Below, piece after piece: positions 41,521-64,000 of a stretch of 64,000 nt of DNA. Source of the stretch: Macrostomum lignano (taxonomy: Eukaryota); the NCBI GenBank assembly GCA_002269645.1, contig NIVC01003225.1, positions 1 to 64,000 of the forward strand. Reading direction: 5' to 3'. The notes beneath the pieces are model-generated. The model saw only the letters and a list, made by a program, of their open reading frames with translations. It had not been told where the DNA came from and searched no databases. A program made the translations under genes and the position numbers. Numbering within the stretch: the stretch's first letter is position 1; each line of letters opens with the position of its first letter.

Positions 41521-41759
41521 ATTGTTGTTCATCAAAATTGGAAGCACAGTACTAGTATCCAGTTAAAGTTACTAGAGCTAATCGAACGAGAACAAGGTCC
41601 CCAGGTTTGCTACACTGCTAAGAGCTAGGGCGGTATTCCATTATACAGAAATGTCTTGTCTTGTTGCCAGAATCAATAAGGCTAATCTGGTAGCGATGCT
41701 CGTTTAATAAATAATAGAGAAATGAAGGCCAACACCAACATATAAGAAATTATTATAAT

Positions 41760-41999: not shown

Positions 42000-42398
42000 C
42001 TAGAAAACCTTGAGCTGTAAACTGGCTCCTCCACCTGCAAGCTGAGTATTCAAACTAGGTCTATGATGCTTAATGTGCAAGGCTTCCAGCACTCTGAGCT
42101 TGCCATCAAATCTACATCTATCCAAAACAGTGAAAAGCTCAGTCGGCTCATGCTCGGCATTGCAACTAAGCAAGTGATCATGCACAGCAGAGTTATTCAT
42201 TCTATGCTCCCTAGCCCTAGTGTACAGGTGCCTTTTGGTTTTTCCGATGTAGGAAATGCTCTGATCACCAGAGCAACAAAATTGATAGATGACACCAGCA
42301 GACAGAGCTCTAGGGGCCTTCGACTTCAACTTGCTAACAAACTGGCCAATTTTGGCGGTCTGAAACACAACCATGACCCGAGAGTTGAAATACTTCAA
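42000..42398 (-). CDS. Penelope GIY-YIG endonuclease (truncated ORF)
   Basis: YQFCC..SYIGKTKRHLYTRAREH...LEALHIKHHRPSLNTQL. Confidence 0.9.
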   Translation of the reverse strand: MKYFNSRVMVVFQTAKIGQFVSKLKSKAPRALSAGVIYQFCCSGDQSISYIGKTKRHLYTRAREHRMNNSAVHDHLLSCNAEHEPTELFTVLDRCRFDGKLRVLEALHIKHHRPSLNTQLAGGGASLQLKVF

Positions 42399-43161: not shown

Positions 43162-43536
43162 AGTAGTATATACGATACAAAATTGCCAGCAAACCGTTCT
43201 CATAATTCAATCAATTTAACCCTTTATCAGTGTGAAATGACTCATTTTCCCTTCACATCGCTCGTCTTCACTTCGCTCGTGTTCATTACCGCTCGTCTTC
43301 ACTCCGCTCAACTCGCTCCGCCCATCCTCGCTTCATTTCTGTCAATTTCCCAATTTCACACTTACAACACTTCCCAACACTTCCAACACTTCCAACACTT
43401 CCAACACTTCGAACACTTCGAACACTTCCAACACTTCCAACACTTCCAACACTTCCAACACTTCCAACACTAACAAACACTCTATAACCCCAGGCCGCGC
43501 CGCAGGCGCGAAGGGTCTTTTTCTGTTACTAAAAAT
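43162..43536 (+). repeat. Polinton terminal repeat, copy 1 (contains (CCAACACTT)n)
   Basis: Colinear and highly similar to 55769-56138. Confidence 0.92.
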
Positions 43537-43544
43537 AGACAAAA

Positions 43545-43955
43545 ATGACACACGTTACACATATACAAAATCTGAATGAATTTCAAATAGGAGACCCAGT
43601 TGAATACCGAGGTGAGGGTCTTTTTGATGTGGTTGGAACAGCAGCAAATTTCGTTAAAGATAATATGGGTCTTATAGGCCAAGCAGGCTCTGCAGCAGGA
43701 TCTATAACAAACGCTGTAAAGGGCGGAATCGAAGCAGCTAGGGCAGCAGAAGAACTAAAGAAATTGAGAGAATTTAACGACACCCTCTCACAAATAAAAG
43801 CAATAAAAGATTTGAAACTAGCGCAGGAAGCAACTCAAGCCGCACAACCAACAGAAACCCCCACGAAAAGCACACCAATAAGTAATAAAGATATTCAGGA
43901 TTTTAATAAAATGTTAACCACAATTAAAGGCGGAAAAGGATTAAAGAAATTTTAA
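43545..43955 (+). CDS. Polinton hypothetical virion-core-like protein (136 aa)
   Basis: Intact ORF directly after the terminal repeat; Gly/Ala-rich amphipathic segment; GEGL and KGGKGL motifs. Confidence 0.7.
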   Translation: MTHVTHIQNLNEFQIGDPVEYRGEGLFDVVGTAANFVKDNMGLIGQAGSAAGSITNAVKGGIEAARAAEELKKLREFNDTLSQIKAIKDLKLAQEATQAAQPTETPTKSTPISNKDIQDFNKMLTTIKGGKGLKKF

Positions 43956-43965
43956 CAATATAAAA

Positions 43966-44955
43966 ATGGACTCAGTTAATAACGATCGGCTATATTTTAT
44001 AGGAGAAATTGTGGATACTTTAAATCTAGACGATAACAAACATAGTCACGCAATGTTAAAAAGATTGGATCGCTTAGGCAAAAAACTTGACTATGATATC
44101 GATACATTTAAACTTGCTTCAAAATATGCAAAAGAAGGAAGGCCAATATCCTTTAAGAATCACGGTAGAAACTATAGGCTAACAGACTCCGATGTGAAAT
44201 TTTTATTGGAGACTCACACTAAAAAGGACGGCGGGTTGCTACCCATTTTACCAATACTTTTGGGTCTCGGAGCAGCCGGAGCAACCGGATTAGCAGCCAA
44301 AAGAATTCACGATAACAGAAAACAATTAGCTGAATTAAAAGCAAAAGAAGGGGGTATATTACCCCTCGCAACTTTGCTCCCAATAATTTTTGCAGGAATA
44401 GGAGCAGCCGGTGGAATAGCGGGAGGAGCCGCCGGAATCACAAAGGCAGTAAATGACAAAAAAGCAGCGGATGAAAAAGCTTAAAGAGATGCTGAATTTC
44501 AAAGACAGCAAATAACGCAGGACGCACAATTCAAACAAAAACTTATAGATACAATTAATAGTATCTCAGCAACAGCAGAACAAAAAAGAAATGCAGAAGC
44601 TAAATTAGCAGCCGGAAAAGGTTTAATTTTAAAAGGTACAAATCACGGCGACGGTTTAATTTTAAAAGGAACAACCCAAGGAAGCGGAGTTGTCGCAGAT
44701 AAACTACATGAGTTTGGGCAAACTTTAGAAAAAACGGGTGAGAAAGCTAAAGGATTTTTTGACAATATTGGAGCTAATTTTAGGCCAGCCGTTCAGAAGA
44801 TTTTTAATAAATTGGGAAAAGATTTTAACATAATTGAAAAACACGACGGAAGTGGATTATATCTCGAAATGCGACCAAAAGCAGGTTCAGGAATCTTCTT
44901 AAATGCAAACGTTATGGGCAGCGGACTACTGTTACCGAAAGCGGATCTCGAATAA
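43966..44955 (+). CDS. Polinton pX/core-like protein (329 aa with an in-frame TAA at 44482)
   Basis: DGGLLPILPILLGLG and EGGILPLATLLPIIFAGIGAAGGIAGG resemble adenoviral pX. The frame continues past 44484 with repeated G(K/D/S)G-hydrophobic motifs to TAA at 44953. Confidence 0.7.
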
Positions 44956-44981
44956 ATATTATATAAATTTTATTCTATAAA

Positions 44982-47900
44982 GTGGAACAAAGACTGACCC
45001 CAGATCAGATTCGACAACTTCTTGCAAATGAGCGCGAACAGTTCAATCGATTACAAAGACAGGTTGAACAAATTGAACAGCGCCAAAGACAAAGAGAAAG
45101 ACAGAGAGCAAGAGAAAGACAGAGAGCGAGAGAAAGAGAAAGGCAAAGACAAAGAGAAAAACAAATAGAAGATCAGCAAATAAAAGAATTAGCAAATAAT
45201 ATAAGGGCATGAAATGAAATGAAGCGTTTAATAGAAAACGCTGAATATGAAAAAAGAATAGCAGAATTAGAAAAAAACCAAAAGAAACCCATACGTCGGA
45301 AACCGCGGAATAAATCGGATGAAAAACCACTAGAAGAGTTTATTAGGGTTTATCGATTTGAACCAATGCAGAACGTCCTAGATTGAAACCCAACTTTCAA
45401 ACGGATATAGTGTTGAAATTACAAACGCAAGAGTACAATATTTTTATAACAAAACCGGAGATGATCGCGAAGAGATTAATCAATACCTAGCAACATTTTA
45501 TAATATAAGTCAGTTTCAAGCTTGGTTTAAACATTTGGTAGAAAACTACGACATGAATTTAAGTGTGTTTTACGGAAGACTTAAAATGACACCAAATGAA
45601 ATTACACTTAAACACGAAAGGTCAAAGCAGGGTATGGGCACAAACGTCATGTGTGAAATTAGTGAATATCAAGACGAGTACTGTTACATACCTAGTGATG
45701 GAAATTGTTTCTACAAGTGTGTTCAATTTATTTATGGTGATAAAGCCCCATCCAAAGACGAATATTGTGCTTGGTTGTACGACTCAAGAACCCAAAGAGG
45801 TTTAATGACAAATTCAAGAATTGGAAAATTCAATGAATATTTTAATCTGAACATAGGGTTGTATAATCCTAATAATCGTGGAATTGAACCGAAGTCTCAA
45901 AGAGGGATTCACCACGACTGGCTATTAATAAATTACTATCACACAGCCGATTATCACATTGGTCATTATTGCCTTATATCCAATAAACAAAGAGGAATCG
46001 CCCTCGATCGGATAAAAGACAATTATAAAGTAGTATTTAAAAACCCAACGTCTGAAAATGTTAAAGAGCTAAAAATTTTCAACACATCCACAAATCCCAA
46101 TAAATCAAATGTATACATATTTGATTTTGAAACATATTTAAATTATAATCAACAAGCATGCCCGTATGCAGTTGGTCTTTTAAACTATAACGACTTTTCT
46201 AATAATTGTAACGAAAGCCCAGAGACAATAAAGAAACTAACTAAGATCTTGATATCAGATCGCGGTTGTGATTTTCAAACAGACGGAGCTAAGGTTGACT
46301 GTGTTAGAAAAATGTTTAAATACCTTGGTACAGTTAGGTCAAAAAAGATTGTTTTGATGGCACACAACTCATCCCGCTTCGATTCGTACATACCACTATT
46401 TTGTAATATAAAACCAATTAAAATTCTTAAAACCCCAAGAGGAATATTATCAATCACTTTTGTAAACGATTACGCGTCAAAAGCGGTTAGGGCGTTTATA
46501 AACAAAGATAAGAAGAAGAATCACAAGGATTCGAAACAAACCATTATGATGCTTTGCTCATATCAACACGCCTCAATGAGTTTAAAAAAGTTTTGCTCGT
46601 CAATGACAATTAGAGAGGATTTGCGCAAGACCTCAATGGTTCATGAAATTACCGAACACGACTACCTAGAGCGCATGGATGAATGGTATGAATATTTACA
46701 ATTTGATCTTATTTCTTTATGTGCCTGTATTCATAAGTATAATGAAATAGCATATGAAATTGGAGGAATGACAATGTTTGATACTCTTACATGTTCGAGT
46801 TTAACATTAAAATGTTGGTTTAAAGATTTTGTTAGAGTTGAAGACAAAATGAAACAATACCTAAAGACAAAAGAAAAAAGTAATTACATTAAAAAAGTTG
46901 AAGAAATAATATCTCCGTTGAAAATCGAAGATTATTTTGACTTGAGCAAACTTGAAAAAATGAAATACCAAACACTATTAAGAAAATAATTTTCGGTTCA
47001 CTCTCATACCAATCCTTATATAGGAAGGTTTATGCGGGACGCAGTCAAAAGAGGCAGAGTATTTGCATTAATAAACAAATACGAAAGCGACTGTTTTCAA
47101 ACAATCGTAGACATCGTAAAAGATCATTTAAAAATACCGACAAGCGAGCCATGTGAGGTTATATCAACTTATCTCAAAAGCGACATGGAAGAAAAAAAGA
47201 AAATCGCAATTAAACTAAAAAACCAATTGGGTACTGTATCAGATTGCTTAATGAATTTTGATGGAGTCTCATTGTACCCATCCGCCATGTCTGATAAGGA
47301 TAGTGAATATCCAAGAGCAGAAAAGGCAGAGTTTTTGATATAAGTGAGGAAAATGATTTTTTGACACAATTTAATTCACAAACCTTTCGACCAAAAACAG
47401 CGGTTTTAAAGATTATGTATGAGAATCCCACCAGCGTTTTTCTTCAACATCTCCCATCGAAAGATAAAGAGAAATTTTATAATCCGGAAACAAAAGCAAA
47501 TGAAACAAAAGCATTAAATAGGTTTAGCAACGGAAAGGTAATCGACACCTTATGTTCCGTAGACATACAAGAAATTGTAAGAATGGGTGGAAAAATATTA
47601 AAGATATACAGCGGAATTGTATATGAAAAAAATTACGTTTCAGAATTATATTACAAACCTTTTTGAAATGAGAAAAGTATTTAAAAAAGAAAATAATGAG
47701 GCGGGTTCTGAATTGGTAAAAACATTGTTAAATTCCTTATATGGTAAAACAGTTCAAAGAGACATTACTTTCACAACTCATCTCTGGAATTTGCTAACAT
47801 TAAAAAAAGAATACGACGACATAATCAAGTCTAATGAGAAAATATGTGATGACTTATTTTATGTTGAAAGAAAGAAAGACACACAAGAATATTTAGATGA

Positions 47901-48547
47901 CGACGATATTCCTACAACAGGCCTTTGTCCGGCGCAATTAGGGATATTTATCTTAGCTCATTCAAGAAGGATCATGAATAATTTTATCACGTCTATAGAC
48001 GGCTCAAAGACTCCAGAAATTTATTACGGCGACACCGATTCGTTATATATACATAAAAAACATTGGGACACATTAAATAAAAACGGGCATGTCGGGAATA
48101 ATTTAAGTCAAGGAAAAACGATTATGGCGAGGGTGGAATTCTATTCGGATATTTTATCGCTCCTAAAATTAAATATTGTCTTTTGTTGAAAGACGATTTT
48201 ATTATGGAAGAGAAAAAACATTTAAAGGATGTGCAAATGATAAGGTCAATTTTGCATCGTTTAAAACTTTATATGATGGACAATCAATAAAAGTAAATAA
48301 TAATGCTCCGTGGAAACGATCGTTTGAAGGTGGTATAACAATCCCCCAAAGCGGCTCAACAATATCAAAAACATATACTTCTACGATAAACACATATAAA
48401 AGAGAAAAACCGGATAAAAACGGAGTTATGAAACCATTCTTTAAAAACTATTTTGATGACAAACCACAGCATGAACACTCAATTGAATATTATAACAGTT
48501 TACTATTTGACGTTGACTATAATTGTTTTGAGTTCGATATGAACTAG
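44982..48547 (+). pseudogene. Protein-primed family B DNA polymerase with an N-terminal OTU-like domain, multiply disrupted
   Basis: SDGNCF...GHY; Exo motifs FDFETY, AHNSSRFD and YLQFD; polymerase motifs FDGVSLYPSAM, KTLLNSLYGK and YGDTDS. Split over at least six ORFs. Confidence 0.93.
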
Positions 48548-48851
48548 CACTTATCAAAAACTAAAGCATGTAATTGTTTAAGCATAATATCCTTTTCAAT
48601 TTCAAATTTTATAGAACACCAATTGTCTTCACAGTCGGCAGGATAACTTAAACAATCTTTTATTTTTTTCCTAAGTACTTTTATTCGTCTAACCAACCTA
48701 TCAATTTCAATTTCAATTTCGTTCTCCGAATCACTGGTTTCGTATGAACTATTTGTTGAGTCGGAATCTTCTGAACGAACCTCCCAATCGTCTGAATTTA
48801 AATAATCTCCAAGTTGAAATATTAACTCACCCTCTTGTTCTAGATCATACT
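48544..48851 (-). CDS. Polinton acidic ORFx homolog (5' truncated), convergent with pPolB
   Basis: YDLEQEGELIFQLGDYLNSDDWEVRSEDSDST... is closely similar to 56294-56420; its stop overlaps the pPolB stop. Confidence 0.75.
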
Positions 48852-49310
48852 AGCAATCTAGTGCCCCCCTTCGGGGTGGCCAATAAGCAAGGGACGAATC
48901 CTTTAAAATGAAAAGAATTCTTAGGGAGGGGGCTAGGAATCGAATTCTCATTTTAATTCTGGGGCTTATGTACCAATAAAACATGCTTGTTTAGAATTTT
49001 AAAACTGACAATTCAACCTACTTGCCTTCTTTCAGAGCAATAGCGTACTACTTCTGTTGCGGTGCAAGCAGTACGCTCTGCAACGACTGGAAAAGCAACT
49101 ACAGCTAAAAAAAGTCTATTAAACTGAACAATATCGTCTTTATTAATTTCCAACGAATTATCGAATAAAGACAGAACAGTTCAAAGCTATAGTCAAAAGG
49201 ATAAGAACTAAGATGTTTTTGCAGAAGGCTTCGCCAACAAGATTTGTAAAATTAATAAACAGACAAGAAAATATAGCTTTCACAGAGATCACAGTCATTA
49301 CCCCTAAATA

Positions 49311-49610
49311 GAAAATATTCCCAAGACAGCAAGCATCCCCCCCAGTAGCAAGCATCCCCCCCAGTAGCAAGCATCCCCTAATACTCCTAGCAAGCATCCA
49401 CCCAGATAGCAAGCATCCCCTAATACTCCTAGCAAGCATCCACCCAGATAGCAAGCATCTGCAGATAGCAAGCATACCCCAAAAAATGTAGAAGCATCCT
49501 TCCAGATAGCAAGCATCCCCCAAATAATGTAGAAGCATCCTTCCAGATAGCAAGCATCCTGCACAAAGCAAGAATCCCTAAATAGCAAGCATCCCTGGAT
49601 AGAAATAATC
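49311..49610. repeat. Degenerate minisatellite (AGATAGCAAGCATCC core)
   Basis: Directly visible repeats. Confidence 0.85.
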
Positions 49611-49631
49611 CTATACATGTAGCCAAGCTTA

Positions 49632-52600
49632 TCAAGCGCAGTAATCCTTGGCTATCGAGTGCAGTAATCCTTGGTTTATTAATAGCAGTAATCCTTGGCT
49701 TATCGAGTGCAGTAATCCTTGGCTTATCGAGTGCAGTAATCCTTGGTTTATTAAGTGCAGTAATCCTTGGTTTATTAATAGCAATAATCCTTGGCTTATC
49801 GAGTGCAGTAATCCTTGGTTTATTAATAGCAATAATCCATGGCTTATCGAGTGCAGTAATCCTTGGTTTATTAATAGCAATAATCTTGGTTTATTTGCAA
49901 TAATCCTTGGCTTATCAAGTGCAGTAATCCTTGGTTTATTAATAGCAATAATCCTTGGCTTATCGAGTGCAGTAATCCTTGGTTTATTAATAGCAATAAT
50001 CCATGGCTTATCGAGTGCAGTAATCCTTGGTTTATTAATAGCAATAATCCATCGAGTGCTTAATCCTTGGTTTATTAATAGCAATAATCCTTGGCTTATC
50101 GAGTGCAGTAATCCTTGGTTTATTAATAGCAATAATCCATGGCTTATCGAGTGCAGTAATCCTTGGTTTATTAATAGCAATAATCCTTGGCTTATCGAGT
50201 GCAGTAATCCTTGGTTTGCCAAGTGCAGTAATCCTTGGTTTATTAATAGCAATAATCCTTGGATTATGAGTGCAGTAATCCTTGGTTTATTAATAGCAAT
50301 AATCCTTGATTAATCAAGTGCAGTAATCCTTGGTTTGCCAAGAGCAATAGTCCTTGGTTTATTGAGTGCAGTAATCCTTGGTTTGCCAAGAGCAATAGTC
50401 CTTGGTTTATTGAGTGCAGTAATCCTTGGTTTATTAATAGCAATAATCCTTGGTTTATGAGTGCAGTAATCCTTGGTTTGCCAAGAGCAATAGTCCTTGG
50501 TTTATTGAGTGCAGTAATCCTTGGTTTATTAATAGCAATAATCCTTGGCTTATCGAGTGCAGTAATCCTTGGTTTATTAATAGCAATAATCCTTGGCTTA
50601 TCGAGTGCAGTAATCCTTGGTTTATTAATAGCAATAATCCATGGCTTATCGAGTGCAGTAATCCTTGGTTTATTAATAGCAATAATCCTTGGCTTATCGA
50701 GTGCAGTAATCCTTGGTTTATTAATAGCAATAATCCTTGGCTTATCGAGTGCAGTAATCCTTGGTTTATTAATAGCAATAATCCATGGCTTATCGAGTGC
50801 AGTAATCCTTGGTTTATTAATAGCAATAATCCATGGCTTATCGAGTGCAGTAATCCTTGGTTTATTAATAGCAATAATCCTTGGCTTATCGAGTGCAGTA
50901 ATCCTTGGTTTATTAATAGCAATAATCCATGGCTTATCGAGTGCAGTAATCCTTGGTTTATTAATAGCAATAATCCATGGCTTATCGAGTGCAGTAATCC
51001 TTGGTTTATTAATAGCAATAATCCATGGCTTATCGAGTGCAGTAATCCTTGGTTTATTAATAGCAATAATCCTTGGTTTATCAAGTGCAGTAATCCTTGG
51101 TTTGCCAAGTGCAGTAATCCTTGGTTTATTAATAGCAATAATCCTTGGATTATCAAGTGCAGTAATCCTTGGTTTATTAATAGCAATAATCCTTGGTTTA
51201 TGAGTGCAGTAATCCTTGGTTTGCCAAGAGCAATAGTCCTTGGTTTATTGAGTGCAGTAATCCTTGGTTTATTAATAGCAATAATCCTTGGCTTATCGAG
51301 TGCAGTAATCCTTGGTTTATTAATAGCAATAATCCTTGGCTTATAATGCAGTAATCCTTGGCTTTCGAGTGCAGTAATCCTTGGTTTATTAATAGCAATA
51401 ATCCATGGCTTATCGAGTGCAGTAATCCTTGGTTTATTAATAGCAATAATCCTTGGCTTATCGAGTGCAGTAATCCTTGGTTTATTAATAGCAATAATCC
51501 ATGGCTTATCGAGTGCAGTAATCCTTGGTTATGAGTGCAGTAATCCTTGGTTTATTAATAGCAATAATCCTTGGCTTATCGAGTGCAGTAATCCTTGGTT
51601 TATTAATAGCAATAATCCTTGATTAATCAAGTGCAGTAATCCTTGGTTTGCCAAGAGCAATAGTCCTTGGTTTATTGAGTGCAGTAATCCTTGGTTTGCC
51701 AAGAGCAATAGTCCTTGGTTTATTGAGTGCAGTAATCCTTGGTTTATTAATAGCAATAATCCTTGGCTTATCGAGTGCAGTAATCCTTGGTTTGCCAAGT
51801 TCAGTAATCCTTGGTTTATTAATAGCAATAATCCTTGGCTTATCGAGTGCAGTAATCCTTGGTTTATTAATAGCAATAATCCATGGCTTATCGAGTGCAG
51901 TAATCCTTGGTTTATTATTAGCAATAATCCTTGGCTTATCGAGTGCAGTAATCATTGGTTTATTAATAGCAATAATCCATGGCTTATCGAGTGCAGTAAT
52001 CCTTGGTTTGCCAAGTGCAGTAATCCTTGGTTTATTAATAGCAATAATCCATGGCTTATCGAGTGCCGTAATCCTTGGTTTATTAATAGCAATAATCCTT
52101 GGCGTATCGAGTGCAGTAATCCTTGGTTTATTATTAGCAATAATCCTTGATTAATCAAGTGCAGTAATCCTTGGTTTGCCAAGAGCAATAGTCCTTGATT
52201 ATTGAGTGCAGTAATCCTTGGTTTATTAATAGCAATAATCCTTGGCTTATCGAGTGCCGTAATCGTTTTTGAGTGCAGTAATCCTTGGTTTATTAATAGC
52301 AATAATCCTTGGCTTATCGAGTGCAGTAATCCTTGGTTTATTAATAGCAATAATCCTTGATTAATCAAGTGCAGTAATCCTTGGTTTATTAATAGCAATA
52401 ATCCTTGGCTTATCGAGTGCAGTAATCCTTGGTTTATTAATAGCAATAATCCTTGATTAATCAAGTGCATTAATCCTTGGTTTATTAATAGCAATAATCC
52501 TTGGCTTATCGAGTGCAGTAATCCTTGGTTTGCCAAGTGCAGTAATCCTTGGTTTATTAATAGCAATAATCCATGCTTATCGAGTGCAGTAATCCTTGGT

Positions 52601-53098
52601 TTATTAATAGCAATAATCCTTGGCTTATCGAGTGCAGTAATCATTGGTTTATTAATAGCAATAATCCTTGGCTTATCGAGTGCAGTAATCCTTGGTTTAT
52701 TAATAGCAATAATCCTTGATTAATCAAGTGCAGTAATCCTTGGTTTGCCAAGAGCAATAGTCCTTGGTTTATTGAGTGCAGTAATCCTTGGTTTGCCAAG
52801 AGCAATAGTCCTTGGTTTATTGAGTGCAGTAATCCTTGGTTTATTAATAGCAATAATCCTTGGCTTATCGAGTGCAGTAATCCTTGGTTTGCCAAGTGCA
52901 GTAATCCTTGGTTTATTAATAGCAATAATCCTTGGCTTATCGAGTGCATTAATCCTTGGTTTAATAATAGCAATAATCCATGGCTTATCGAGTGCAGTAA
53001 TCCTTGGTTTATTAATAGCAATAATCCTTGGCTTCTTGAGTGCAGTAATCCTTGGTTTGCCAAGAGCAATAGTCCTTGGTTTATCGAGTGCAGTAATC
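49632..53098. repeat. 3.5 kb satellite: 48 bp dimer of 24 bp monomers
   Basis: GAGTGCAGTAATCCTTGGTTTATT + AATAGCAATAATCCTTGGCTTATC, with TTGCCAAG variants. Confidence 0.97.
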
Positions 53099-53269
53099 TA
53101 AGTGTTTTTATTTAGTTCTTTAATAAAAGCTTTTAATAAAAAATTTTACACTACTACTTTTAAGCTACTTAGATTCGAACCCAGTTCGCTGCATTAGCAG
53201 TCTGGTCTGTTCAGCTCTAGGCTAGCTCTCATCGAAGTTATCAGTGATTCAACACTCACACCAAGTCAG

Positions 53270-55768
53270 TGTTATATATCGCGAAGCCGAGAGGGTTATA
53301 TCTTCTATAGCGCGCGGTCTGATGAAACTAAAGCTCAGAGGGCATGGCCGTCTCTCTAGGCCGTCACGTGTATTTATACCATAGACAGTAATATTCATAC
53401 GAGTATAGCCCAAGCTTCAGTGTCACACACATGCATATGCACACTCATGCACAACACCTCCCCCTTCAGTTACAATGTGACTTCTTGTCAGTCAGTCGTA
53501 CGAACTTTTGCGGGGGTCAATCTGAAGCCTGTTGGGTGGCCGACGGTTTCTCGTATGCCACGGTCTTGATCGTCCTTCCGGCCCTCTGGCTCCATTCGTA
53601 CCTTGCGAGTCCGCAGGGCCAGTATTGGGCTGGTAGCGAGCTTCCGCCGCATGTGCTGGAAACCTTCTCCGTAGGAACTTTCGGTTTCTCCGAAGAACCC
53701 GGCCGCTGGTCAGCTTGACTAGAAAGTCGTTGTTTTTCATTAGCTCGACCACCACGCCGTACTTGTCCCATCGCTTGGTCTGGGCGTCCTGCACTGCAAC
53801 TCTGTCTCGCACTCGCAAGGCTGGGAGTTGGTGAGCTGCTCTATTGTAGTACACCTCCATCCTCTCCCTCTTCTCCGCTGCCCTGTTGTCCACCTCATCT
53901 GCTGCTGCTTGCCATTCCTTGGCGAACGCTCTCCGGTGAATTGGCAGGGTATCGCGAACCTCGTGACCGAACACCATCTGTGCTGGTGATCTGCCGTCGT
54001 ATCGCGGAGTGTTGCAATACATCAGTATCCCCTGGCAGAGATCGTCCCAGTTCGGCTCTCTGGCTCCGTGATTCCAATTTCCACGCACCAGCTTTTTCAT
54101 TGCCTTGACGGCTGCCTCCGCTCGCCCATTGCTCTGCGCGTACGTGGGGGATGATGTCCTCTGCTCCACATTCCAACGACGCAGGAATCCCAGAAATGGC
54201 TTGGCTGTGAATTGCGGTCCATTGTCTGACCATAACACCTCCGGCGCGCCCTTCCCACAGAAACGTCTTCGCAGCACGTTGATCACCTTGTACGTTGAGG
54301 CATCAGTTCCGAAGTAGTCTAGTGTTGGCCAACCAGACTTTCCGTCCACAGTCACCAGGAACATCTCCCAGCGAATTGAAACAAGTCGGCATGGACTTCT
54401 TGAAAGACGCGTTCCGGTTCCTTTCTCACAATCATCGGCTCCTTTACTTGACTAGGCAAAGTCTCTTGGCACGGGATACACTTCCTGGCTGACATTTCTA
54501 TATCGTTGTCGATTCCCGGCCAGTAGAAAGTCATTCTGGCTCTCTCTTTCATCTTAACGACTCCCTGATGCATCTTGAGCATCCTATTCAGGACTTCTGC
54601 TCGCATCTCCTTGGGAATGAGCAATCGCCTTCCTACTACGATCAAGTCATGCTCGACTGCTAGTTTGTCGCGGATGTTCCAAAATTGTCTTAGATGGACC
54701 GGTACGTTTCCCTTCTCGTTAGGGAATCCTTGCTGAACCAATCGCTTCAGCTCCTGGTACTCCTGGTCTCTTCTGGCAATTCGCGTCAACTCTGCTTCAG
54801 AAGCTTGAATCTCATCAATAGCCATGATGATGTTGCTCTCGTGCTCCTCCGCAAGTTCTTCGTCTTTGGTTGCCGGCTCTACCGGGGCTCTTGACAAGGC
54901 ATCGGCGGCCTTGTGGTCACTGCCTTTCACCCATCGAGCCGTGTACTGGAAGCAATCCAGTTTCTGTCGCAACCTCTGTAGCCTCGGATTCTCAATCTGA
55001 TCCAAGGTGTATCTATTTAAAATCGGCTCCAACGGCTTGTGGTCGATGATTATCTCAAAATTCTGCAGTCCTTCGAGGAACAGACGACATTTCTTTGCCG
55101 CCCATACGACTGCCAACAGCTCCAGTTCAATCATGGCGTATCGCCTCTCTGTCTCCGAAATGAACCGCGAGCCTGCTTGAACCACTTTCCAAACGCTATT
55201 GTCTTGCTTTTGCTTGAGCACGAATCCAAGCCCCTTCAGTCGAGACGCATCCGTGTGCAGTGCTGTCTGCCTCGTGTGGTCATAGTAGGCCATTGTAGGA
55301 ACATTGCTTAGTTCTTTCCGCATGCTGTCAAATGCTTTTTCGTGTTCGCAGCTCCACATGAACTCATTCCTCGGTTTCAACAACTCTCTCAACGGCTCAC
55401 CGAGGGAAGCTATCTTGTCACTACAGAGCCCAATCTGATTCACTAGTCCGAAGAACGCTCTGAGGTCGGTCAGATTTTCTGGCTTCGGGAAGTCTCGAAT
55501 CGCCTTCACTATGGCAGGGTCTATAGCGTATCCTTTCGAGTCCAACTGGAATCCGGCAAATGTCACACTGGGCTGAGCAAACACAAACTTCTCTGGATTC
55601 AGGCTGATGCCGCGGTCCCTGCATCGCTGCAGAAACTCACGAACAGCACGGCGATGCTCGTCAAAGTCGTCGTGAGCCAGCAGTACGTCGTCCACAATAT
55701 GATAGGTGCTCTTCAGTCCCTCTAGCACTTCATCCACACGCCTATTGTAATGCTCCGATATGGACGAC
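53270..55768 (-). mobile_element. Ty3/Gypsy LTR retrotransposon 3' part, interrupted in RT by Polinton 2
   Basis: PPT GAAGGGGAGG followed by a 187 bp LTR (53456-53270; TGTTG...TAACA, internal TATAAATA); pol domains listed separately. Confidence 0.9.
53492..55768 (-). pseudogene. Gypsy pol: RT C-terminal half, RNase H, integrase (frameshift near 54365)
   Basis: SSISEHYNRR, HIVDD; HTDAS, YAMIELELLA, DHKPL; HQG...CIPC, HADLF, SDNGPQF, NGRAE. Confidence 0.93.
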
Positions 55769-56138
55769 AGTAGTAATATACGGTACAAAATTGCCAGCAA
55801 ACCGTTCTCATAATTCAAACGATTTAACCCTTTATCAGTGTGAAATGACTCGTTTTCCCTTCATTATCGCTCGTCTTCACTTCGCTCAACTCACTTCGCT
55901 CATCCTCGCTTCATTTCGGTCAATCTCCCCATTTCACACTTACAATGATTAATTCGCATTGAATTCTGAGAATACGCTCTCGTCGTTCGCTTCGGTTTGC
56001 TGGCAATTTTGTACCACACCCAAACACTTCCAACACTTCCAACTCTTCTAACTCTTCTAACACTTCCAACTCTCCCTAACACTCTATAACCCCAGGCCGC
56101 GCCGCAGGCGCGAAGGGTCTTTTTCTGTTATTAAAAAT
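55769..56138 (+). repeat. Polinton terminal repeat, copy 2
   Basis: Same orientation and sequence family as 43162-43536. Confidence 0.92.
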
Positions 56139-56429
56139 GAACCGACCTTTTCAGTTAGTGATACTTTTGAGACTGTTGCTAAAAATTCAGAGATTATAAA
56201 ACAACATATTTTGAATGGAATAATTGATGAAGTTTATTTAAAATATGACGATAAGCACGAACTAAAACTTTATCCATTAGAGTTGGATGGTTTGTATGAT
56301 CTAGAACAAGAGGGCGAGTTAATATTTCAACTTGGAGATTATTTAAATTCGGATGATTGGGAGGTTCGTTCAGACGATTCCAACTCAACAAATAGCTCAT
56401 ATGAAACTAGTGATTCGGAGAGTCTGTGA
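56137..56429 (+). CDS. Polinton acidic ORFx (early frameshift; shorter C-terminus than in element 1)
   Basis: ATG at the terminal repeat end; SDTFETVAKNSEIIKQHILNGIIDEVY...SDSESL. Confidence 0.65.
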
Positions 56430-56447
56430 AAAAAATATAAATAAAAA

Positions 56448-56615
56448 ATGAAGGTAAATTATTCCTACATCGGATATGTGCCAATTAATGAACTTAATGA
56501 AAATTTAAGTCTGATAACGGTTGAACAAATGTCAATAATAATATTAGTAACAATAATAGTAATAATATTGTTTTTGTTTGTTATAAAAAATTTAATACCA
56601 TGTTGCCTTAAGTAA
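56448..56615 (+). CDS. Small single-pass membrane protein (55 aa)
   Basis: MKVNYSY...MSIIILVTIIVIILFLFVIKNLIPCCLK, with an AAAAAATG start context like the other Polinton genes. Below the ORF-track cutoff. Confidence 0.5.
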   Translation: MKVNYSYIGYVPINELNENLSLITVEQMSIIILVTIIVIILFLFVIKNLIPCCLK

Positions 56616-56625
56616 TTGTTCGAAC

Positions 56626-58190
56626 TTAGTTCGCAGATATTATCTGATTCTCATAAAAAGATCCTAATATTTCTTCACCATCCTTATCAGCAATTATATA
56701 GGTTGTAGGATTTGTATTTAAACTTTACTGATAGTAAATTTCTCACTTATTTTCCAATATCCTTTTCTTCCCTTTTCAAACTTATCTTTCCATTTATAGA
56801 TATAAACAGAATCACCAACTTTAAAACCTTTAGTTTTATTTTTTTCAAATTCTCCAAAAGTAACTTTAACGTTTTTAGGATTGTTATAAGCTTGTTGAGG
56901 AGTCATCTTTATAGCTGAATGATATGAATTATTATAATCTTTCACGACGTCTGGTAATATTTTTACCCACTTTTGGTTACCATTCAAACTAAACTGAAAC
57001 CACAATTTCTTACCTAAAGTTCGATTAAATCTTTCTATTAATGCGTTTTTGCTTTCTCCATAAATAGAATAAATTTTATTAATATACTCCCCATTCGCGT
57101 CCTTTTTCCTTTCTTGTCCTTTTTCAAAATGATATAATTTATACATATGAGGATTGTAAAATTCTTTTCCTTCATCAACACATAACCTTTCGCTTTTTTC
57201 TCCAAGGCTTCTAAAAGCAGCAGCAACCTCCTCTCCTTTTTTGGATTTTAAAGGAACAGCCCACGCGTATCGAGTAAAACCATCTAGTATGGTTAATATA
57301 TATTTATATCCACGATCACTCGGGATTGACATTAGATCAGCATACCAAATTTCATTCTTTTTGAAGTTCATGATTTTTCTATAAAATTTAGGTTTTCGGT
57401 ATTCTTTATGAAGAACCTTTGCCTCATCAGAACTTAACCCACTACCACTTAACAACAAACAATCGACACAATTATTTCCATGTTGGTTGTATTTAATTCC
57501 CAAACCAAATTTAACTTTAGACTGCAGAATCTTTTTAACCATCCACCTAGTTAATCTTTGGCTTACCGATAATCCTTGTAAATCATCTAATCCTTTAATC
57601 ATTTTTCTATCGGCTTCATGTTTTAATCTTAATGCTTCCTCGGGTGAGTTCTTGTCAGCATCTCTGTATGCTAAGTCATGATAATATGCTAACCAATCAA
57701 TACCATTAATGGGAATTGAATCAGCTTTTGGAGTGTCATCAGGATTTAATCTCAAATCTAACCTAGTGCCGGGTAGTTTACCCTCAATCTTTCGAAAAAG
57801 GCTGGAGCACACCTTAAGCGATTAAATTACCGCCCACCTCCGTCTGCTCTCTGAACCTTCTCCTTATCGGTCTTAGACTTAGGAGCTTGGCTGCGCATTG
57901 CCACCAATGTCTTCAAGCTTGTTACCATTGGGAAGAGGAGTTACCTCTGTTCCTTCAAAAGATTTCTCAATTGAAGTGGTACTTGAAGCTGTATGACGGG
58001 TTTCACGCAATTTGAAGGTGTCGCCACAAATAGTGACTAGCAAGGACATTGACTTCCTCACTCAGGCCACGGGTTAATCTGCAAACGAGTACCCAGGAAT
58101 GTGTAATTCATTTGTATATTTCCCACTAGTAAAAATACTCGGTAAGCTTTTTAATTCTTTTTGAATATCCAAAAATCCTCCTTCAAATAC
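56626..58190 (-). CDS. Phospholipase A2-like domain fused to the Polinton retroviral-type integrase (interrupted by a ~305 bp insert; 3' frameshift)
   Basis: ELHIPGYSFA / PGTRLDLRL...INGIDWLAYYHDLAY PLA2 motifs; integrase WYADL, ILDGFTR, VDEGKEF, IERFNRT. The C-terminus NPTTYIIADKDGEEILGSFYE follows a frame shift at about 56720. The 5' start is approximate. Confidence 0.88.
57775..58080. other. Foreign, more GC-rich insert splitting the PLA2 GPGT motif
   Basis: Separates YSFA from PGT; ends read TTTA-CCC...GGG-TTAA. Confidence 0.7.
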
Positions 58191-58804
58191 TAATTGATTG
58201 CTCTTTTTTAATAGCCTTAAAAATACATGAAAGCACCAATTGTTTTGCAAACTCTTCGATGGTTGGTTGTTTATCATTTTTTGAAATATTATCTACAGCA
58301 ACTAAGTATCTTTTATTTCTCCAATTTTCAGACTTTTTAATTTGTTCTTCATCGCGATAATCATATGAAGAAGCGGGAATGAAATGATCAATATGTAACA
58401 TTCCAGTATAATCTTTTGGGACATAATAATGTTTTGTGAAATTTAACCTATCAGTAAAGAACTCAATTGAGCAACCAAGGTAATCAATAGTATGATTATT
58501 TTTTTGAGCATTATTTGATTTTAATAGTTTATATATTCTATTTCTAATTAAAACAATATGTTTGTAATTCTCATCTTCACTATATCTTGTTTTATTATAT
58601 TCTTTATTATATTCTTTTATTTTATCCTTATTATTTTTTCTATATTCTTTATTATATTCTTTATTGTTTTTCATCCACATACTATATGTAACTCTCTCAC
58701 AAGATCGACAATGATTTTTAAATCTTTTTGTGTCATTTCTCCATCTAAAAAATTCTTTAGTCATTGGTTTTTCTTGACTTAGTACAAATCTTTTTAGTTT
58801 CCAT
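58183..58804 (-). CDS. HNH-family endonuclease (endonuclease VII-like, as in large DNA viruses); frameshift near the 5' end
   Basis: METKKICTK then a shift to QEKP...HCRSC; basic repeats; LHIDHFIPASSYD...DNISKNDK. Confidence 0.75.
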
Positions 58805-58827
58805 TTTATAAAAAATAAATTTAACAA

Positions 58828-59487
58828 TTAAATTCCTGTATGTCCAGCAGCTTTCGCAGCAGCTAAAACAAGTTTTCGCGGAGTTTTAAATCCTTCGCCA
58901 ACAGCTGGTTTGTTATTTATAGAATCAACAATCCTTTTATACAAACTGGTTTTTTTAGCAGCTGTTACTCCTAACTCATCATAAAAATTTTTAGCACATA
59001 CTAATTCATCCCTAGAATATAAATCGGGGTTAAATTTTACTCGTGGGTTCATAATAATATTATATGCTCCACCCAATTCTCTATATAGCTCATTCCGATT
59101 TTTATCAACCCTACCAATTTGGTAATTATCATTACCTAAATCCACCACAGCAATACTTTGTGGTGCAGGTCTTTGAAATTGTTTAACTCCACCCCTTTCT
59201 GCAGCCCTAATTTCTGCAACTCTCAATACTGCTTGATCAACATTATAAGTAGGCGACTCATCCAAAATTTCATTCTCTTTTGGCTCTGTATTCTTAGCAA
59301 TTTTTTCCAGAAGGTCTTTATCTGTTTTTTCTAGTTCACTAATTTTCCCGGTATTAGGATTAACAAAAGGAGCAGCAAATTTCTCACCAGCTAATTGTAT
59401 TCCTAATTTTCTTTTTTGTAAGTTTCTAACAAAATCAGAATATCTTTGCTTCTCTTTATAAATCGCTAACTCTCCATCAACATCCAT
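58828..59487 (-). CDS. Polinton hypothetical protein (219 aa)
   Basis: Intact ORF ending in VGEGF..AAKAAG; no family recognised. Confidence 0.65.
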   Translation of the reverse strand: MDVDGELAIYKEKQRYSDFVRNLQKRKLGIQLAGEKFAAPFVNPNTGKISELEKTDKDLLEKIAKNTEPKENEILDESPTYNVDQAVLRVAEIRAAERGGVKQFQRPAPQSIAVVDLGNDNYQIGRVDKNRNELYRELGGAYNIIMNPRVKFNPDLYSRDELVCAKNFYDELGVTAAKKTSLYKRIVDSINNKPAVGEGFKTPRKLVLAAAKAAGHTGI

Positions 59488-59534
59488 AAATTAACTCATT
59501 TTTTAACATAAAAAAACTTTTTTAACTTTAAAAA

Positions 59535-61776
59535 ATGGCTGAAACAAAAACTATATGGAGTGATAAATTTCATTTCAAAAAGCATCGTCAGTATATTAAT
59601 GAGGTTAGGGCAAAAGATTTAAATTTTACTCTACCAACAAGTGATAATTCAAATAACTTTACTACCGGAACGGTAACTTTTGACATTGGCGCAGCCGACA
59701 GCGTTTTGGATATGAAAAATGCGTTTTTCCGCGTTAGATGGTTGTATACCAGAAATGATGGAACTGCTCTTGCAGCCGGTGATATCGCAGATCGTTCTGG
59801 TATTATTATAGAAAATGATTGGTTTTATAAATGTTTTTCCCAAGCCCAACTAACAGTTAATGGAGCCGAGGTTGAGACATCAACAAACCCAGCAGAGATT
59901 AATGGAGTTTTGAAACATTTAAATTATACTTATTTATCAAAACAAGTTGGTGATAGTGTTGGGTGGATGCCGGATAAGGGTGATGGACGAGCACTAGTTT
60001 TCCCTAACGTACAAAACGCAGCTGGCGCAGATACCGCAGCTCTTATAGCTTATCTTAATACCAATATAGTGTGACGTTGTCAGTTTAAGGTGGTCCCGAA
60101 AAGGGCCGCTGGACTATATTTTCCCTTGTAATTTCTCATATTAATTTCTCCAATAGTTTATTTTAACGTTTACTTATAGTAGAGCCCAACGATTTTGTGG
60201 CAATTTCTAATTCACTGTATATTTTGCTATCCTCTCTCGCGGCCGTATAAAATTGGCACGATCGATAATTTTAAGTTCTCTCGCCAGCCAATGAAAACCA
60301 CTCGTGCTTCGCGCTACCCCCCTCTGCGCTCCTTTATTAAACCCCCCGCCTGGCGGCGGCACTCCTCTCTCCCGTCCTTATCTGTGCTTCTCTCTTCCTC
60401 CCGGCCTGTCCTCGGCCTTGTTTTCCTTCTCTCTGTCTGGGCCAGCCTGTTTACACTGCCTGCCACTGTCTGCCACGGCTAACGCCAATCTCACCACTAC
60501 GCATCTGCCACTGTTGTGCTCATCGCCGTTACTCACCACGTTGCATCGTCTTGCATCACTCGCCTACCACTCAACTACAATCTCTAACTCACCTTCAATT
60601 CAAAACCATTGTTGAAGCCGCCAGTGCCCCAAAAGCGCAATAAGTTCTATATTGATATTAACCGCATCGAATATTGATCTCAACAATAATAACCAACTAC
60701 GGCCAGTTTCCGGCCTTGTATGCCAAGTGCTCCGCTACGCAAATCCGCTATCAAGACTTGACTCGATTCATTTGGGACTAAAACGGCCCTTTTAAGGGTC
60801 ACGGACAACATCAAATAACGTGACAATAGTTCCAGTTGTAACCACCATGACTAACACAAAAGATATTAATACTGGTTTTATCGATCGTCAGAATAAATTC
60901 CCAGTCGCGGTTTTAACCACAGCAAGCGCATATGAGCAGGACTTTTCAATCTTCCCACTATTTGGGTTCTTCTCACCAAATCGGGTATGGAAAGGATTAA
61001 AATTTGGGATACAGTTGCAAATATCTGGCGGATATCAGCCTAGGATACTTTATGGAACCTCGATTTCAACCGATATCGCAGTTCGCATAGCATCAATTCA
61101 ATTAGTCGTGCCAAAACTCGAGCTAACGGCACCGCTTTTAAAACATGTCGATAATCAGTTAATGGTTGATCAAGAAATATTTTATTTGAATCGTCGACAC
61201 TTTATGCGAACCATTAATAATAACCAGGATTCATTCCAGTGGCAGATAATTACATCAAAACGTCGGGTTAGATATATTTTTGTTTGGTTTAAGATAACAA
61301 ACAGAAGGAGTAAAAGAACAAATGGAGATTTATATTGGCTTCAATCGGGTGACATACCAGCACAAGCAGCCACCGCAACAGACAATGCGGCTTCGGCTAT
61401 TAACGAGTTTAATGTTCAGAATATCCGCCTGCAGGTTGATGATCAATATTATCCGGTTAAAGACCCCCTTAATCTAAATCTTGCAAATAATAATGTTAAT
61501 GATTTTATAAAATATTATCTGGATTATGTCAAAAATGAAGCGTATGCTGTTCCTCAGTACACACCCACAGAGTTTATAAACATTCACCCAGTGGTTGTTT
61601 TTGATCTAACGGCACAGAAAGAAAACGTATCCAATGTTGGACTTAATTATATGTTAGAGATTAATAAAACCGGTAATCAGGCAATAGAGGCCCACGTATT
61701 GTTTCTAGAGGAATATATGTCAATTGCTAAAGCTGATGGCACGATTGTTCGGGATGTGCCCTTAGATAAAAATTAG
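59535..61776 (+). CDS. Major capsid protein (double jelly-roll), 493 aa after removing the insertion
   Basis: 59535-60069 plus 60830-61776 rejoin in frame (TNIVPVVTT). VTFDI, LTVNGAEVE, LQVDDQYYP and HPVVVFDLT are typical Polinton MCP segments. Confidence 0.85.
60070..60825. mobile_element. 756 bp TG...CA insertion (solo LTR or Ginger-like MITE)
   Basis: TGTGACG...CGTGACA ends, imperfect ~40 bp terminal inverted similarity, 4 bp TSD ATAG. Confidence 0.88.
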
Positions 61777-61795
61777 ATAAATTATTTCATTAAAA

Positions 61796-62563
61796 ATGGT
61801 AAAAGCAAAACACAATATTATATTTCCAACTGATCCTTTTCTTTGTTTAGTAATTGGTGGGTCGGGTAAAGGAAAAACACACTTTGTTTACGATTTATTA
61901 ACAACAGATGGAATGTTAGACTATAATAATTTATTAATCTATACTAACAAACCTAGAATAAAATATTATGAATTTCTTAAACATGGATTAAAAAACAAAT
62001 GAAAAAAATATATCTTGTTTAGAATGTTAAGGGCTTATGAGAAATATGAAGACGACGACGAACCAAAATTTACACTCGACGACATTGAGGATTTATGTAA
62101 AACAACGGCAGAAGATCCAGAAAACACTAACAACCGAGCCCCAACTGTTAGAGTATCAACCCGATTATCCTATGATCAAATTCCAAAACATGATAAAACA
62201 TTAATTATTTTTGATGATTGTATTAACGACGGCGATCAAGAATTGCAAAAAGAAATTTTTGTTAGTGGCAGAGGTGATGGAATTGGAGCTTTTTATCTAA
62301 CACAGTCCTTTAGAGAATTAGAATCGATTATAAAAAAGAATGCAAGTTGTTGTGTAATGATCGATTTAGATAACTATGATCTACAAAATATACATGCGAG
62401 ATTTAATCCTGGGTTGGATGCAAAACCATTCAAAAGTATGTGTAAAAAAATTTGGGATGATAGTCAATACAAACATATTTATATCAATCCGAGGTTAGAA
62501 AGGAAACATAGAATCTTAACAAATTTGATAAAAGAAGATAACGAGGAAGAGGAAGACCAATAG
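61796..62563 (+). CDS. FtsK/A32-like packaging ATPase (frameshift in an A run near 62000)
   Basis: Walker A GGSGKGKT, Walker B LIIFDD, SGRG and YLTQS motifs. Confidence 0.9.
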
Positions 62564-62582
62564 CACGTTTCCCACTATAAAA

Positions 62583-63285
62583 ATGGCTACAAATTTGGAT
62601 TCAATTACGTAATGCACTAAATCTTGATCAATCTCTAAGTTATCAAATAGGTTTGATACTATTTTCAGTTTTTAACATGCCTCAATTAATTAATGCAACA
62701 AACAATCAATTTAGATATTCTAAAGATTCGGGAGCAAATTGGACAACCATTACTATAACGCCGGGTGCATATAACTATACTGATTTGAATGCAGTAATAC
62801 AAGCGGATTTAACAGATAATGGTGATTGGGTAGCAGATGCGATTGTTATAGGAGTTGATTTACCCTCAGGAAGATTCACGCTTACATTAGCATCTGGATA
62901 TCAGGTTGATTTTACAATTGCAAATTCACTTAGAACCATACTAGGATTTAATTCCCGAATCGTTACTGCATCAACAACGGGCGACACCGTGGGAAATATT
63001 GAAGGCGGAGTCAACACAATTAATATTACAACCGACATTTCAAATGGTGGTTATATAACGGACGATAGTGGATTTTTGGTTCAGCGAGGAATTATTTATT
63101 CAATCCCCTTTTTAGCTGTTCCAATCGGAGATAAAATGATAGTTGCTCCGCAAACCCCAATATATTATCCTCTAAAGCAATATAATTTACAATCAATTTA
63201 TATACGAATAGTGGACGATTCAGATCGTATAATAAGTTTTGGTGGACAAGCAATAACAGTAATTTTACGTATAAAACAGGTTTAA
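62583..63285 (+). CDS. Minor capsid (penton) protein, 5' frameshift
   Basis: NNQFRYSKDSG.NW.TITITPGAYN, LRTILGF and IYIRIVDDSDRIISFGG are Polinton penton-like. Confidence 0.85.
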
Positions 63286-63329
63286 TCGCCCTGTAGGGTC
63301 GCGTGCTTTGCACGATTCCCATAGTAAAA

Positions 63330-63503
63330 ATGGGTAATAATAATGCGTTAAAAAAACAATCAGATAAAGTTCAAAACGCAAAGGATAATTATGAAATTGA
63401 ACTAACAAAATTGAAACAACTTCAAGCAGAAAAAATCCGAAAGGAGTTGTTAAAACCCACGGCTACAAAACTAACTAAAACCAAGAGTTTTTCAGGAACA
63501 TAA
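63330..63503 (+). CDS. Small basic protein with an MG start (possible myristoylation)
   Basis: MGNNNALKKQSDK... coiled-coil-like ORF between penton and protease. Confidence 0.45.
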   Translation: MGNNNALKKQSDKVQNAKDNYEIELTKLKQLQAEKIRKELLKPTATKLTKTKSFSGT

Positions 63504-63504
63504 A

Positions 63505-63999
63505 ATGACTATGAGTTGGGGCGAGTTCAAACAAAGATATGGAACAGACACAACAAGCAATATCGAATTAACAAATTGGGCAAGGCAATTAAAAATAAAA
63601 CCATTTAGATGTGTTATGCGGGATGAGATCAAAGATTTACCACAATATGGATCTTACATAGTCAATATTGAAACGACAAAAGAAAACGGCGTTCATTGGT
63701 CAGCAGTTTATTCCAAACCCAAACTTGTTTATTTTTTTGATTCATATGCCCTTCCTCCATTACAGGAAATAAAAGACAAATTTAATCATACTAAAAATCG
63801 TTTATGTGGAGATTATCACGAACAGTTTCAAACCTTTGACAAAAGTTATTGCGGACAGGCGGCGCTTTATTTTTTTTATCGACTTTCGAATGAAGCTCGT
63901 GTAAACCCAGAAGTATTTAAAGCTATTTTAGACTCCATAAAAAAGACAGTAAAAAATGTTATTTTCTGGAACACCCTCATGGAACGGAACAACAAGTAG
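63505..63999 (+). CDS. Adenain-like maturation cysteine protease
   Basis: GVHW (His), FFDSY (Asp) and QFQ...YCG (Gln/Cys) catalytic arrangement. Confidence 0.9.
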   Translation: MTMSWGEFKQRYGTDTTSNIELTNWARQLKIKPFRCVMRDEIKDLPQYGSYIVNIETTKENGVHWSAVYSKPKLVYFFDSYALPPLQEIKDKFNHTKNRLCGDYHEQFQTFDKSYCGQAALYFFYRLSNEARVNPEVFKAILDSIKKTVKNVIFWNTLMERNNK

Positions 64000-64000
64000 T

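Follow-up and report, generated by a model that had tools for sequence, protein, structure and literature searches.

Two decayed Polinton copies, neither of them whole, lie within the 64,000-nucleotide stretch of Macrostomum lignano DNA analysed here (the window), and their visible parts divide a gene set between them: the polymerase stands apart from the integrase and capsid genes, with pX on element 1 and ORFx on both elements. This split arrangement is real and unusual, and several readings, with likelihoods given below, compete to explain its mechanism. The best explanation, held tentatively and at less than an even chance, is that the Polinton family consists of a polymerase class of about 6.2 kb and a capsid class of about 11 kb, which have their arms in common and complement each other. 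The common terminus, the gene sets of the two copies, a depth excess in contigs from public runs, seemingly recurring ORFx junctions and a young pPolB lineage all speak for it. Two other readings, one of a helper with its satellite and one of deletion derivatives, are close rivals. It seems firm that the family does not consist uniformly of one-piece elements carrying the polymerase of element 1.

Both elements begin with AGTAGT and a common terminus in the same orientation, at 43162–43536 in element 1 (+ strand, TIR-type, with a 9-bp tandem array inside) and at 55769–56138 as aligned in element 2 (annotated as 55769–56136, +). Long terminal inverted repeats starting AG or AGT are a signature of Polinton/Maverick elements, as is a 6-bp target site duplication. 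Blastn aligned the two termini, indels included, over 400 columns at 75% (E 2e-80), and their alignment contains long identical blocks, bearing out the earlier note's description of a terminus of about 370 bp at the start of both elements. One such terminus was seen per element; no right terminus of either was found within the 64-kb window, nor any reverse copy of the whole terminus, the sole reverse piece being an inverted copy of about 80 nt of terminal sequence inside the element 2 terminus (55944–56022). Two candidates for a right end were rejected: the element 2 terminus as the end of element 1, as it has the same orientation and the ORFx part is duplicated at 92%, and the window's final AGTAGT, which overlaps the protease stop and is one of 13 such hexamers in the window. 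Terminus patterns gave no matches in the viral, metagenome and prokaryote collections. Between the two elements lie a satellite of 146 copies of a 24-bp unit (49629–53098) and a Gypsy-type pol with RT, RNase H and integrase (53492–55768, −), into which element 2 is inserted.

Element 1 (43162–48849) has the order terminus, 136-aa ORF, pX-like gene, pPolB and convergent ORFx. The 136-aa ORF (43545–43955, +) has weak likeness to a pX-region protein of the relative L013 (E 0.013). It is followed by a pX/core-like gene (43966–44955, +), a continuous frame but for a stop at 44482, for which the Pfam Adeno_PX match (E 1.8e-4) is below the cut-off; what had been taken for two core-like genes is in fact the 136-aa ORF and this single broken frame. 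pX is a virion gene, and in the relatives L013 and L082 it lies among the capsid genes. Since element 1 carries it, this copy cannot be called a segment for replication alone. The earlier proposal of complementary segments fares unevenly: the depth excess and the seemingly recurring junctions indirectly favour two classes, but the clean split into replication and morphogenesis is wrong.

The protein-primed PolB was found in element 1 only (PF03175, E 8.6e-11), as a pseudogene (44982–48547, +) with a coiled-coil N-terminus and an OTU-like motif, decayed into six pieces in different frames with two in-frame stops. The pieces matched M. lignano pPolB proteins at 79–93%. Ten sequences from this species (11 accessions) form a pPolB cluster at 96–100% identity, in which two are whole (1206 aa); judging by these near-identical accessions, this is a young lineage with whole copies among its members. 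The C-terminus is reached by six of the 10 cluster members, all six of which end several residues beyond the stop of element 1, so the coincidence of the pPolB and ORFx stops in element 1 is, by this comparison, partly decay. The sole relative from outside Macrostomum in the search was P0002 (46–51%). A protein-based locus scan of genomes, with pPolB as the query, found no relative, and in viral contigs such scans found none for pPolB, MCP, pX or the integrase on its own.

Element 1 is interrupted by a high-copy repeat (48850–49300, −, the far boundary being approximate) with a hairpin and CTAG, then T, at its end. A terminal hairpin, CTAG and a following T are the signature of Helitrons, and by these features the insertion is Helitron-like. 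Contigs with unrelated flanks at the repeat end at 48849 numbered 39, 25, 41 and 31 in four public runs. A break had been reported at 48851; it is real, its position being 48849/48850 and its cause the end of this unrelated repeat. Past 48850, four contigs of run X1 continue in sequence like the 5' part of the element 2 ORFx, and the remainder of element 1, which is absent from the window, may have been lost, or displaced beyond 64000. The predicted unit of about 6.2 kb was recomputed as 6214 bp, provided that a terminus follows ORFx as it does in element 2.

Element 2 runs from 55769 to beyond 64000. Downstream of its ORFx it contains a 56-aa ORF with a hydrophobic stretch (56445–56615, +), a PLA2-like and rve integrase gene (56718–58180, −), an HNH-like nuclease ORF (58183–58827, −), recognized by a motif seen by eye with no Pfam match and with a homologue that adjoins the integrase in L013, and a 219-aa ORF with no assigned function (58828–59487, −). 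The PLA2 part is split by a group I-like intron (about 57775–58072), which had no Rfam match at E≤0.1. The rve integrase, present in element 2 only, was identified by PF00665 (E 1.7e-7) and had 90 homologues. Also confined to element 2 are a double-jelly-roll (DJR) major capsid gene (MCP; 59535–61776, +), a packaging ATPase (61796–62563, +), a minor capsid-like gene (62677–63285, +) and an adenain-type protease (63505–63999, +) with conserved His/Asp/Gln/Cys. The MCP is split by a high-copy insertion of about 760 bp (60066–60825), and contigs of X6 and X13 have it without the insertion, joining 60065 to 60826. It aligned with the PF21738 protein of L082 (hhalign 94%, E 1.4e-7); its structure model was poor (pLDDT 52), and the best Foldseek rows were iridovirus and mavirus capsids. 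The ATPase, with an internal stop near 62000, was recognized by Pox_A32 (E 0.003 and 0.005) and by tblastn to relatives, and the minor capsid-like gene by likeness to its positional equivalent in relatives (E down to 2e-19). Three unrelated types of pPolB (P0009, L082 and L027), used as tblastn queries, had no match in 55769–64000 (E 0.05). The earlier account of element 2, with integrase and capsid module and no pPolB, thus stands within 55769–64000.

ORFx occurs in two forms, a long one in element 1 (48544–48849, −), with 42 codons common with element 2 followed by about 58 of its own and the 5' part cut off, and a short one in element 2 (56137–56429, +). For the latter, a start exactly at the end of the terminus had been claimed; an ATG is present at 56137 and is out of frame with ORFx in this copy. 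For the former, the convergent orientation and the stops overlapping that of pPolB (48544–48547) hold, but the homology is limited to 136 nt (48723–48858 vs 56286–56421, 92%) and the C-termini are unrelated, that of element 1 extending to the pPolB stop and that of element 2 ending at 56429. Six synonymous and two non-synonymous codon differences separate the 42 shared codons. An ORFx homologue search found none. In X13, a contig with 88% likeness to element 2 spans ORFx positions 56174 to 56421 and departs exactly at the junction of element 1, its 76 letters beyond 56421 not being visible, and the junction of the element 2 ORFx with the 56-aa ORF is spanned by X3 and X6 contigs; judging by these contigs, each of the two ORFx junctions seems to be present in further copies. 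In a diverged copy (X1 record 6, X3 record 14), pPolB is likewise joined to the ORFx tail, but the match to element 1 ends at 48670, short of the ORFx part that the two elements have in common, and 284 letters are left unplaced.

These junctions bear on the possibility that a one-piece Polinton of about 15 kb survives and that both elements are its deletion products. Its map would read terminus-ORFx-integrase-capsid-fibre-gene Y-pPolB-pX-terminus; in element 1 an internal deletion would have brought ORFx and the tail of gene Y together, and polymerase-less derivatives would have multiplied in trans, like non-autonomous transposons. Placed one after the other, the two gene orders make up this single canonical map, the unrelated ORFx tails are what a fusion predicts, related elements are one-piece, and the diverged copy departing at 48670, a point against two classes, may be such a whole element. 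Against this origin, the X13 contig, a third copy, departs from element 2 at the element 1 junction, so that the short form must at minimum have multiplied, and the ORFx frame of element 1 is open over 101 codons despite seven breaks in the pPolB of the same copy. Deletion from a surviving whole is considered rather unlikely.

Contigs from public runs of three DNA studies were aligned on both elements at 85% likeness, and summed contig depth was expressed relative to 15 pPolB bins, a rough measure that is no copy number. Six pX-region, four integrase and 13 capsid-module bins were compared, with three bins over the MCP insertion left out; the terminus, ORFx, HNH-like and 219-aa bins, some of which were lower, were also left out of the means. 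Mean relative depth was 6.2, 3.5, 3.5 and 4.9 in the pX region (X1, X3, X4 and X6), 5.4, 5.7 and 6.1 in the integrase and 5.8, 4.1 and 4.0 in the capsid module (both X1, X3 and X6). Overall, capsid, integrase and pX DNA was about 3.5–6 times deeper than pPolB DNA, ORFx DNA also exceeded it several-fold, and single X6 contigs reached 507 and 714 on the capsid side vs 135–137 on pPolB. Runs found with element 2 as the query cover element 2 by choice; the pX region lay outside the query, yet its excess matches that of the capsid module. Depth falls at the pX/pPolB boundary (about 44950–45020), where contigs of X4 and X6 have loose ends. The excess together with this drop indicates that most capsid-bearing copies probably lack the pPolB type of element 1 and have pX, presumably, at the far end. 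The ORFx tail of element 1 (row 48593) was covered at pPolB-like depth by 8–10 contigs per run; on this evidence, pPolB is usually continued by that tail in other copies. None of eight window ORFs sought for accession-neighbour linkage was present in the protein collection, and the protein search matches included no integrase or MCP named from M. lignano.

The same contigs weigh against a local accident, in which the arrangement of element 1 would be a one-off rearrangement or an assembly error in DNA dense with repeats. Such an accident is conceivable, given the nesting of Helitron-like, satellite and Gypsy insertions and the decay of both copies, but the link between pPolB and the ORFx tail occurs in many contigs of four runs and in a diverged subfamily, and the depth asymmetry is family-wide, leaving this explanation highly improbable.

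Alignment with the integrase gave 83 loci (the best 80 of 228 from metagenomes and three viral), mostly short, with a top identity band of 33–49%. Among these best matches, pPolB was found in 12 of the 83, of L082 type in 11 and of L027 type in one, the type of element 1 in none, and pPolB together with MCP in five. L082 is a whole one-piece element of 15,597 bp with 123-bp inverted ends, and the pPolB of element 1 barely aligns to the L082 and L027 types (E 0.001 and 0.013). Since one-piece relatives carry the L082-type polymerase, the wider integrase clade is, as far as these loci represent it, one-piece, with a usual polymerase unlike that of element 1. Such relatives, L082 included, count against two classes.

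They also lend some credit to a helper and its satellite. The capsid class would then be complete, with an unrelated pPolB beyond 64000, and the element 1 class, without capsid and integrase, would have taken over both arms of its helper and would borrow integrase and capsid in a one-way dependence. The predominance of the L082 type among the pPolB-bearing integrase loci agrees with this, and as that type is barely alignable to the polymerase of element 1, the same depth profile would be expected; depth is blind to a different pPolB, a further point against two classes. In the available text on nematode Polintons, recent pPolB swaps at 16% identity are described in elements otherwise >90% identical (10.1101/2023.08.22.554363). 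On the other side, a second pPolB was not found in 55769–64000, and the integrase relatives with genomic context are distant. A satellite is possible, though on balance rather unlikely.

In the preferred two-class reading, the rarer class of about 6.2 kb is predicted to have the order terminus-pX-pPolB-ORFx-terminus, and the commoner class of about 11 kb the order terminus-ORFx-integrase-capsid genes-pX-terminus, its length being the sum of 7.5, 2.0 and 1.8 kb with 2.0 kb for an assumed fibre-like gene past the protease. A complete copy of either class was not among the sequences seen, which counts against the reading. In the established picture, to which the accessible part of PMC4061559 contributes, the terminal-protein part of pPolB enables priming at terminal repeats and the ends are the substrate of the integrase; both can in principle serve any molecule with the same ends. 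A pPolB with a terminal-protein part would thus prime at any common terminus, so that both classes would be copied; an integrase recognizing the same ends would insert both, and for packaging both could use the capsid, ATPase and protease that the large class encodes. The two classes would probably go back to a one-piece ancestor whose middle was reciprocally lost or exchanged while the arms were kept. That the family is a two-segment integrating dsDNA Polinton virus, with the same gene-bearing arms (terminus-pX and terminus-ORFx), swappable middles (pPolB in one, integrase and capsid module in the other), no one-piece form left, a ratio of about 1:4–6 and both segments packaged, is a doubtful proposition.

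By gene content, both elements belong with the Polintons/Mavericks and adintoviruses (OTU and pfam03175 ‘Alpha’ PolB), with which, as far as described in the available text of PMC8502044, they share a long terminus starting AG, an OTU-motif pPolB, an rve integrase, a DJR MCP, ATPase, an adenain-type protease and PLA2-like and pX-like genes. In the same text, PolB, integrase and ATPase occur together in nearly all adintovirus contigs of >10 kb, whereas in the present family one copy has the polymerase and another the integrase/capsid set, and the two sets differ in abundance. In the literature searched, mostly without subscription papers, Repbase and supplements and in the portions at hand, neither a segmented Polinton nor a description of Polintons from Macrostomum was found; the available parts of PMC11071308 and 10.64898/2026.10.13.758929 contained no relevant segment or helper passages.

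Bombyx mori bidensovirus (BmBDV) and Drosophila Vesanto virus resemble the present elements in having a Polinton-derived pPolB and segments with matching termini, and their second segment is thought to have arisen by replacement of the middle of the first (PMC4061559 and PMC8363768, available portions); Vesanto virus also has unequal segment copy numbers (PMC8363768, same portion). The bidnavirus model of the earlier note holds for the matching terminus and is otherwise loose: these viruses have ssDNA, a parvovirus-type capsid and no integrase, and BmBDV has pPolB and the major capsid on one segment (PMC4061559, as far as available), in contrast to the present elements, which are integrated dsDNA with a DJR capsid, an integrase and gene-bearing arms that would be common to both. 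With a DJR capsid, an integrase and no S3 helicase among 24 ORFs scanned, the elements depart from the features of Bidnaviridae.

Polintons are held to be ancestral to several eukaryotic virus groups, including the segmented bidnaviruses. If the two-class reading is right, the family would work like a segmented pPolB virus, yet would be no bidnavirus, and replication and integration in trans, as well as the way in which segmentation arose, would become testable in a cultured model animal; if a bipartite virus exists, a laboratory flatworm would show the transition from a monopartite Polinton to a segmented virus in progress. Also of interest would be a satellite that replicates itself alongside an animal Polinton, whereas decay by deletion would be ordinary.

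Tlr elements are another comparison among non-autonomous or partial Polintons. In Caenorhabditis elegans, TIR and pPolB without integrase occur as remnants at 10 loci (10.1101/2024.01.15.575659, available text), which counts against two classes; these partial Polintons resemble element 1 in having terminus and pPolB without integrase and in their reliance in trans, but are treated there as remnants, without an abundant reciprocal class sharing both arms. For Anolis, the accessible part of PMC3014272 gives no non-autonomous Polintons. The nematode Polintons with swapped pPolB each keep one polymerase and capsid genes, and a capsid-less polymerase class is not described in the portion available; as in the present family, the polymerase behaves like an exchangeable module in a conserved backbone (10.1101/2023.08.22.554363).

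Internal deletions do occur in the Polinton family to which elements 1 and 2 belong, as seen from a 3172-bp deletion, relative to element 2, running from the integrase gene to the MCP gene (57653–60826), which was recurrent, with one contig form found in three public sequencing runs (X1, X3 and X6). The MCP gene of element 2 also contained a high-copy insertion (60066–60825), which terminated in a hairpin resembling the histone stem-loop (60780–60825; Rfam E 0.011, below the cut-off).

The PLA2-like part of the element 2 integrase gene was split by a group I-like intron (57775–58072, minus strand), with the upstream exon ending in the residues ...ELHIPGYSF. Motifs that we take, as judged by eye, to be P/Q/R/S-like were present in this intron, together with a paired change in P7; comparison with Rfam gave no group I match at E ≤ 0.1, and the fold z was −1.8. 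Contigs from run X13 departed from the intron at two positions, 58034 and 58070, a hint that introns related to this one occur in different contexts.

Within the element 2 terminus, an inverted copy of ~80 nt of terminal sequence (55944–56022) was accompanied by an extra 20-nt piece. A joint in the contig comparison revealed another copy that skips this inverted sequence. The inverted sequence could be the product of a template switch during strand-displacement replication.

Among the relatives found of the element 1 pPolB, the only one from outside Macrostomum was P0002, on an ENA contig of 5870 bp; this is near the length predicted for the proposed polymerase class (terminus-pX-pPolB-ORFx-terminus). 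One metagenome/viral locus with a related integrase (L082:1–15597) was a complete one-piece Polinton-type genome with perfect inverted ends of 123 bp, a pPolB containing an endonuclease VII insert, and separate PLA2-like and integrase ORFs.

ORFx of element 1 was interrupted by a Helitron-like 3′ end (48850–49300), after which came 19–42-bp and 24-bp satellites as far as 53098; other copies of this Helitron-like end had AT-rich flanks. Just left of element 1, a presumably Penelope-like GIY-YIG endonuclease frame (42000–42374, minus strand) was bracketed by a pair of inverted repeats, 70 nt long, located at 41714 and 42460.
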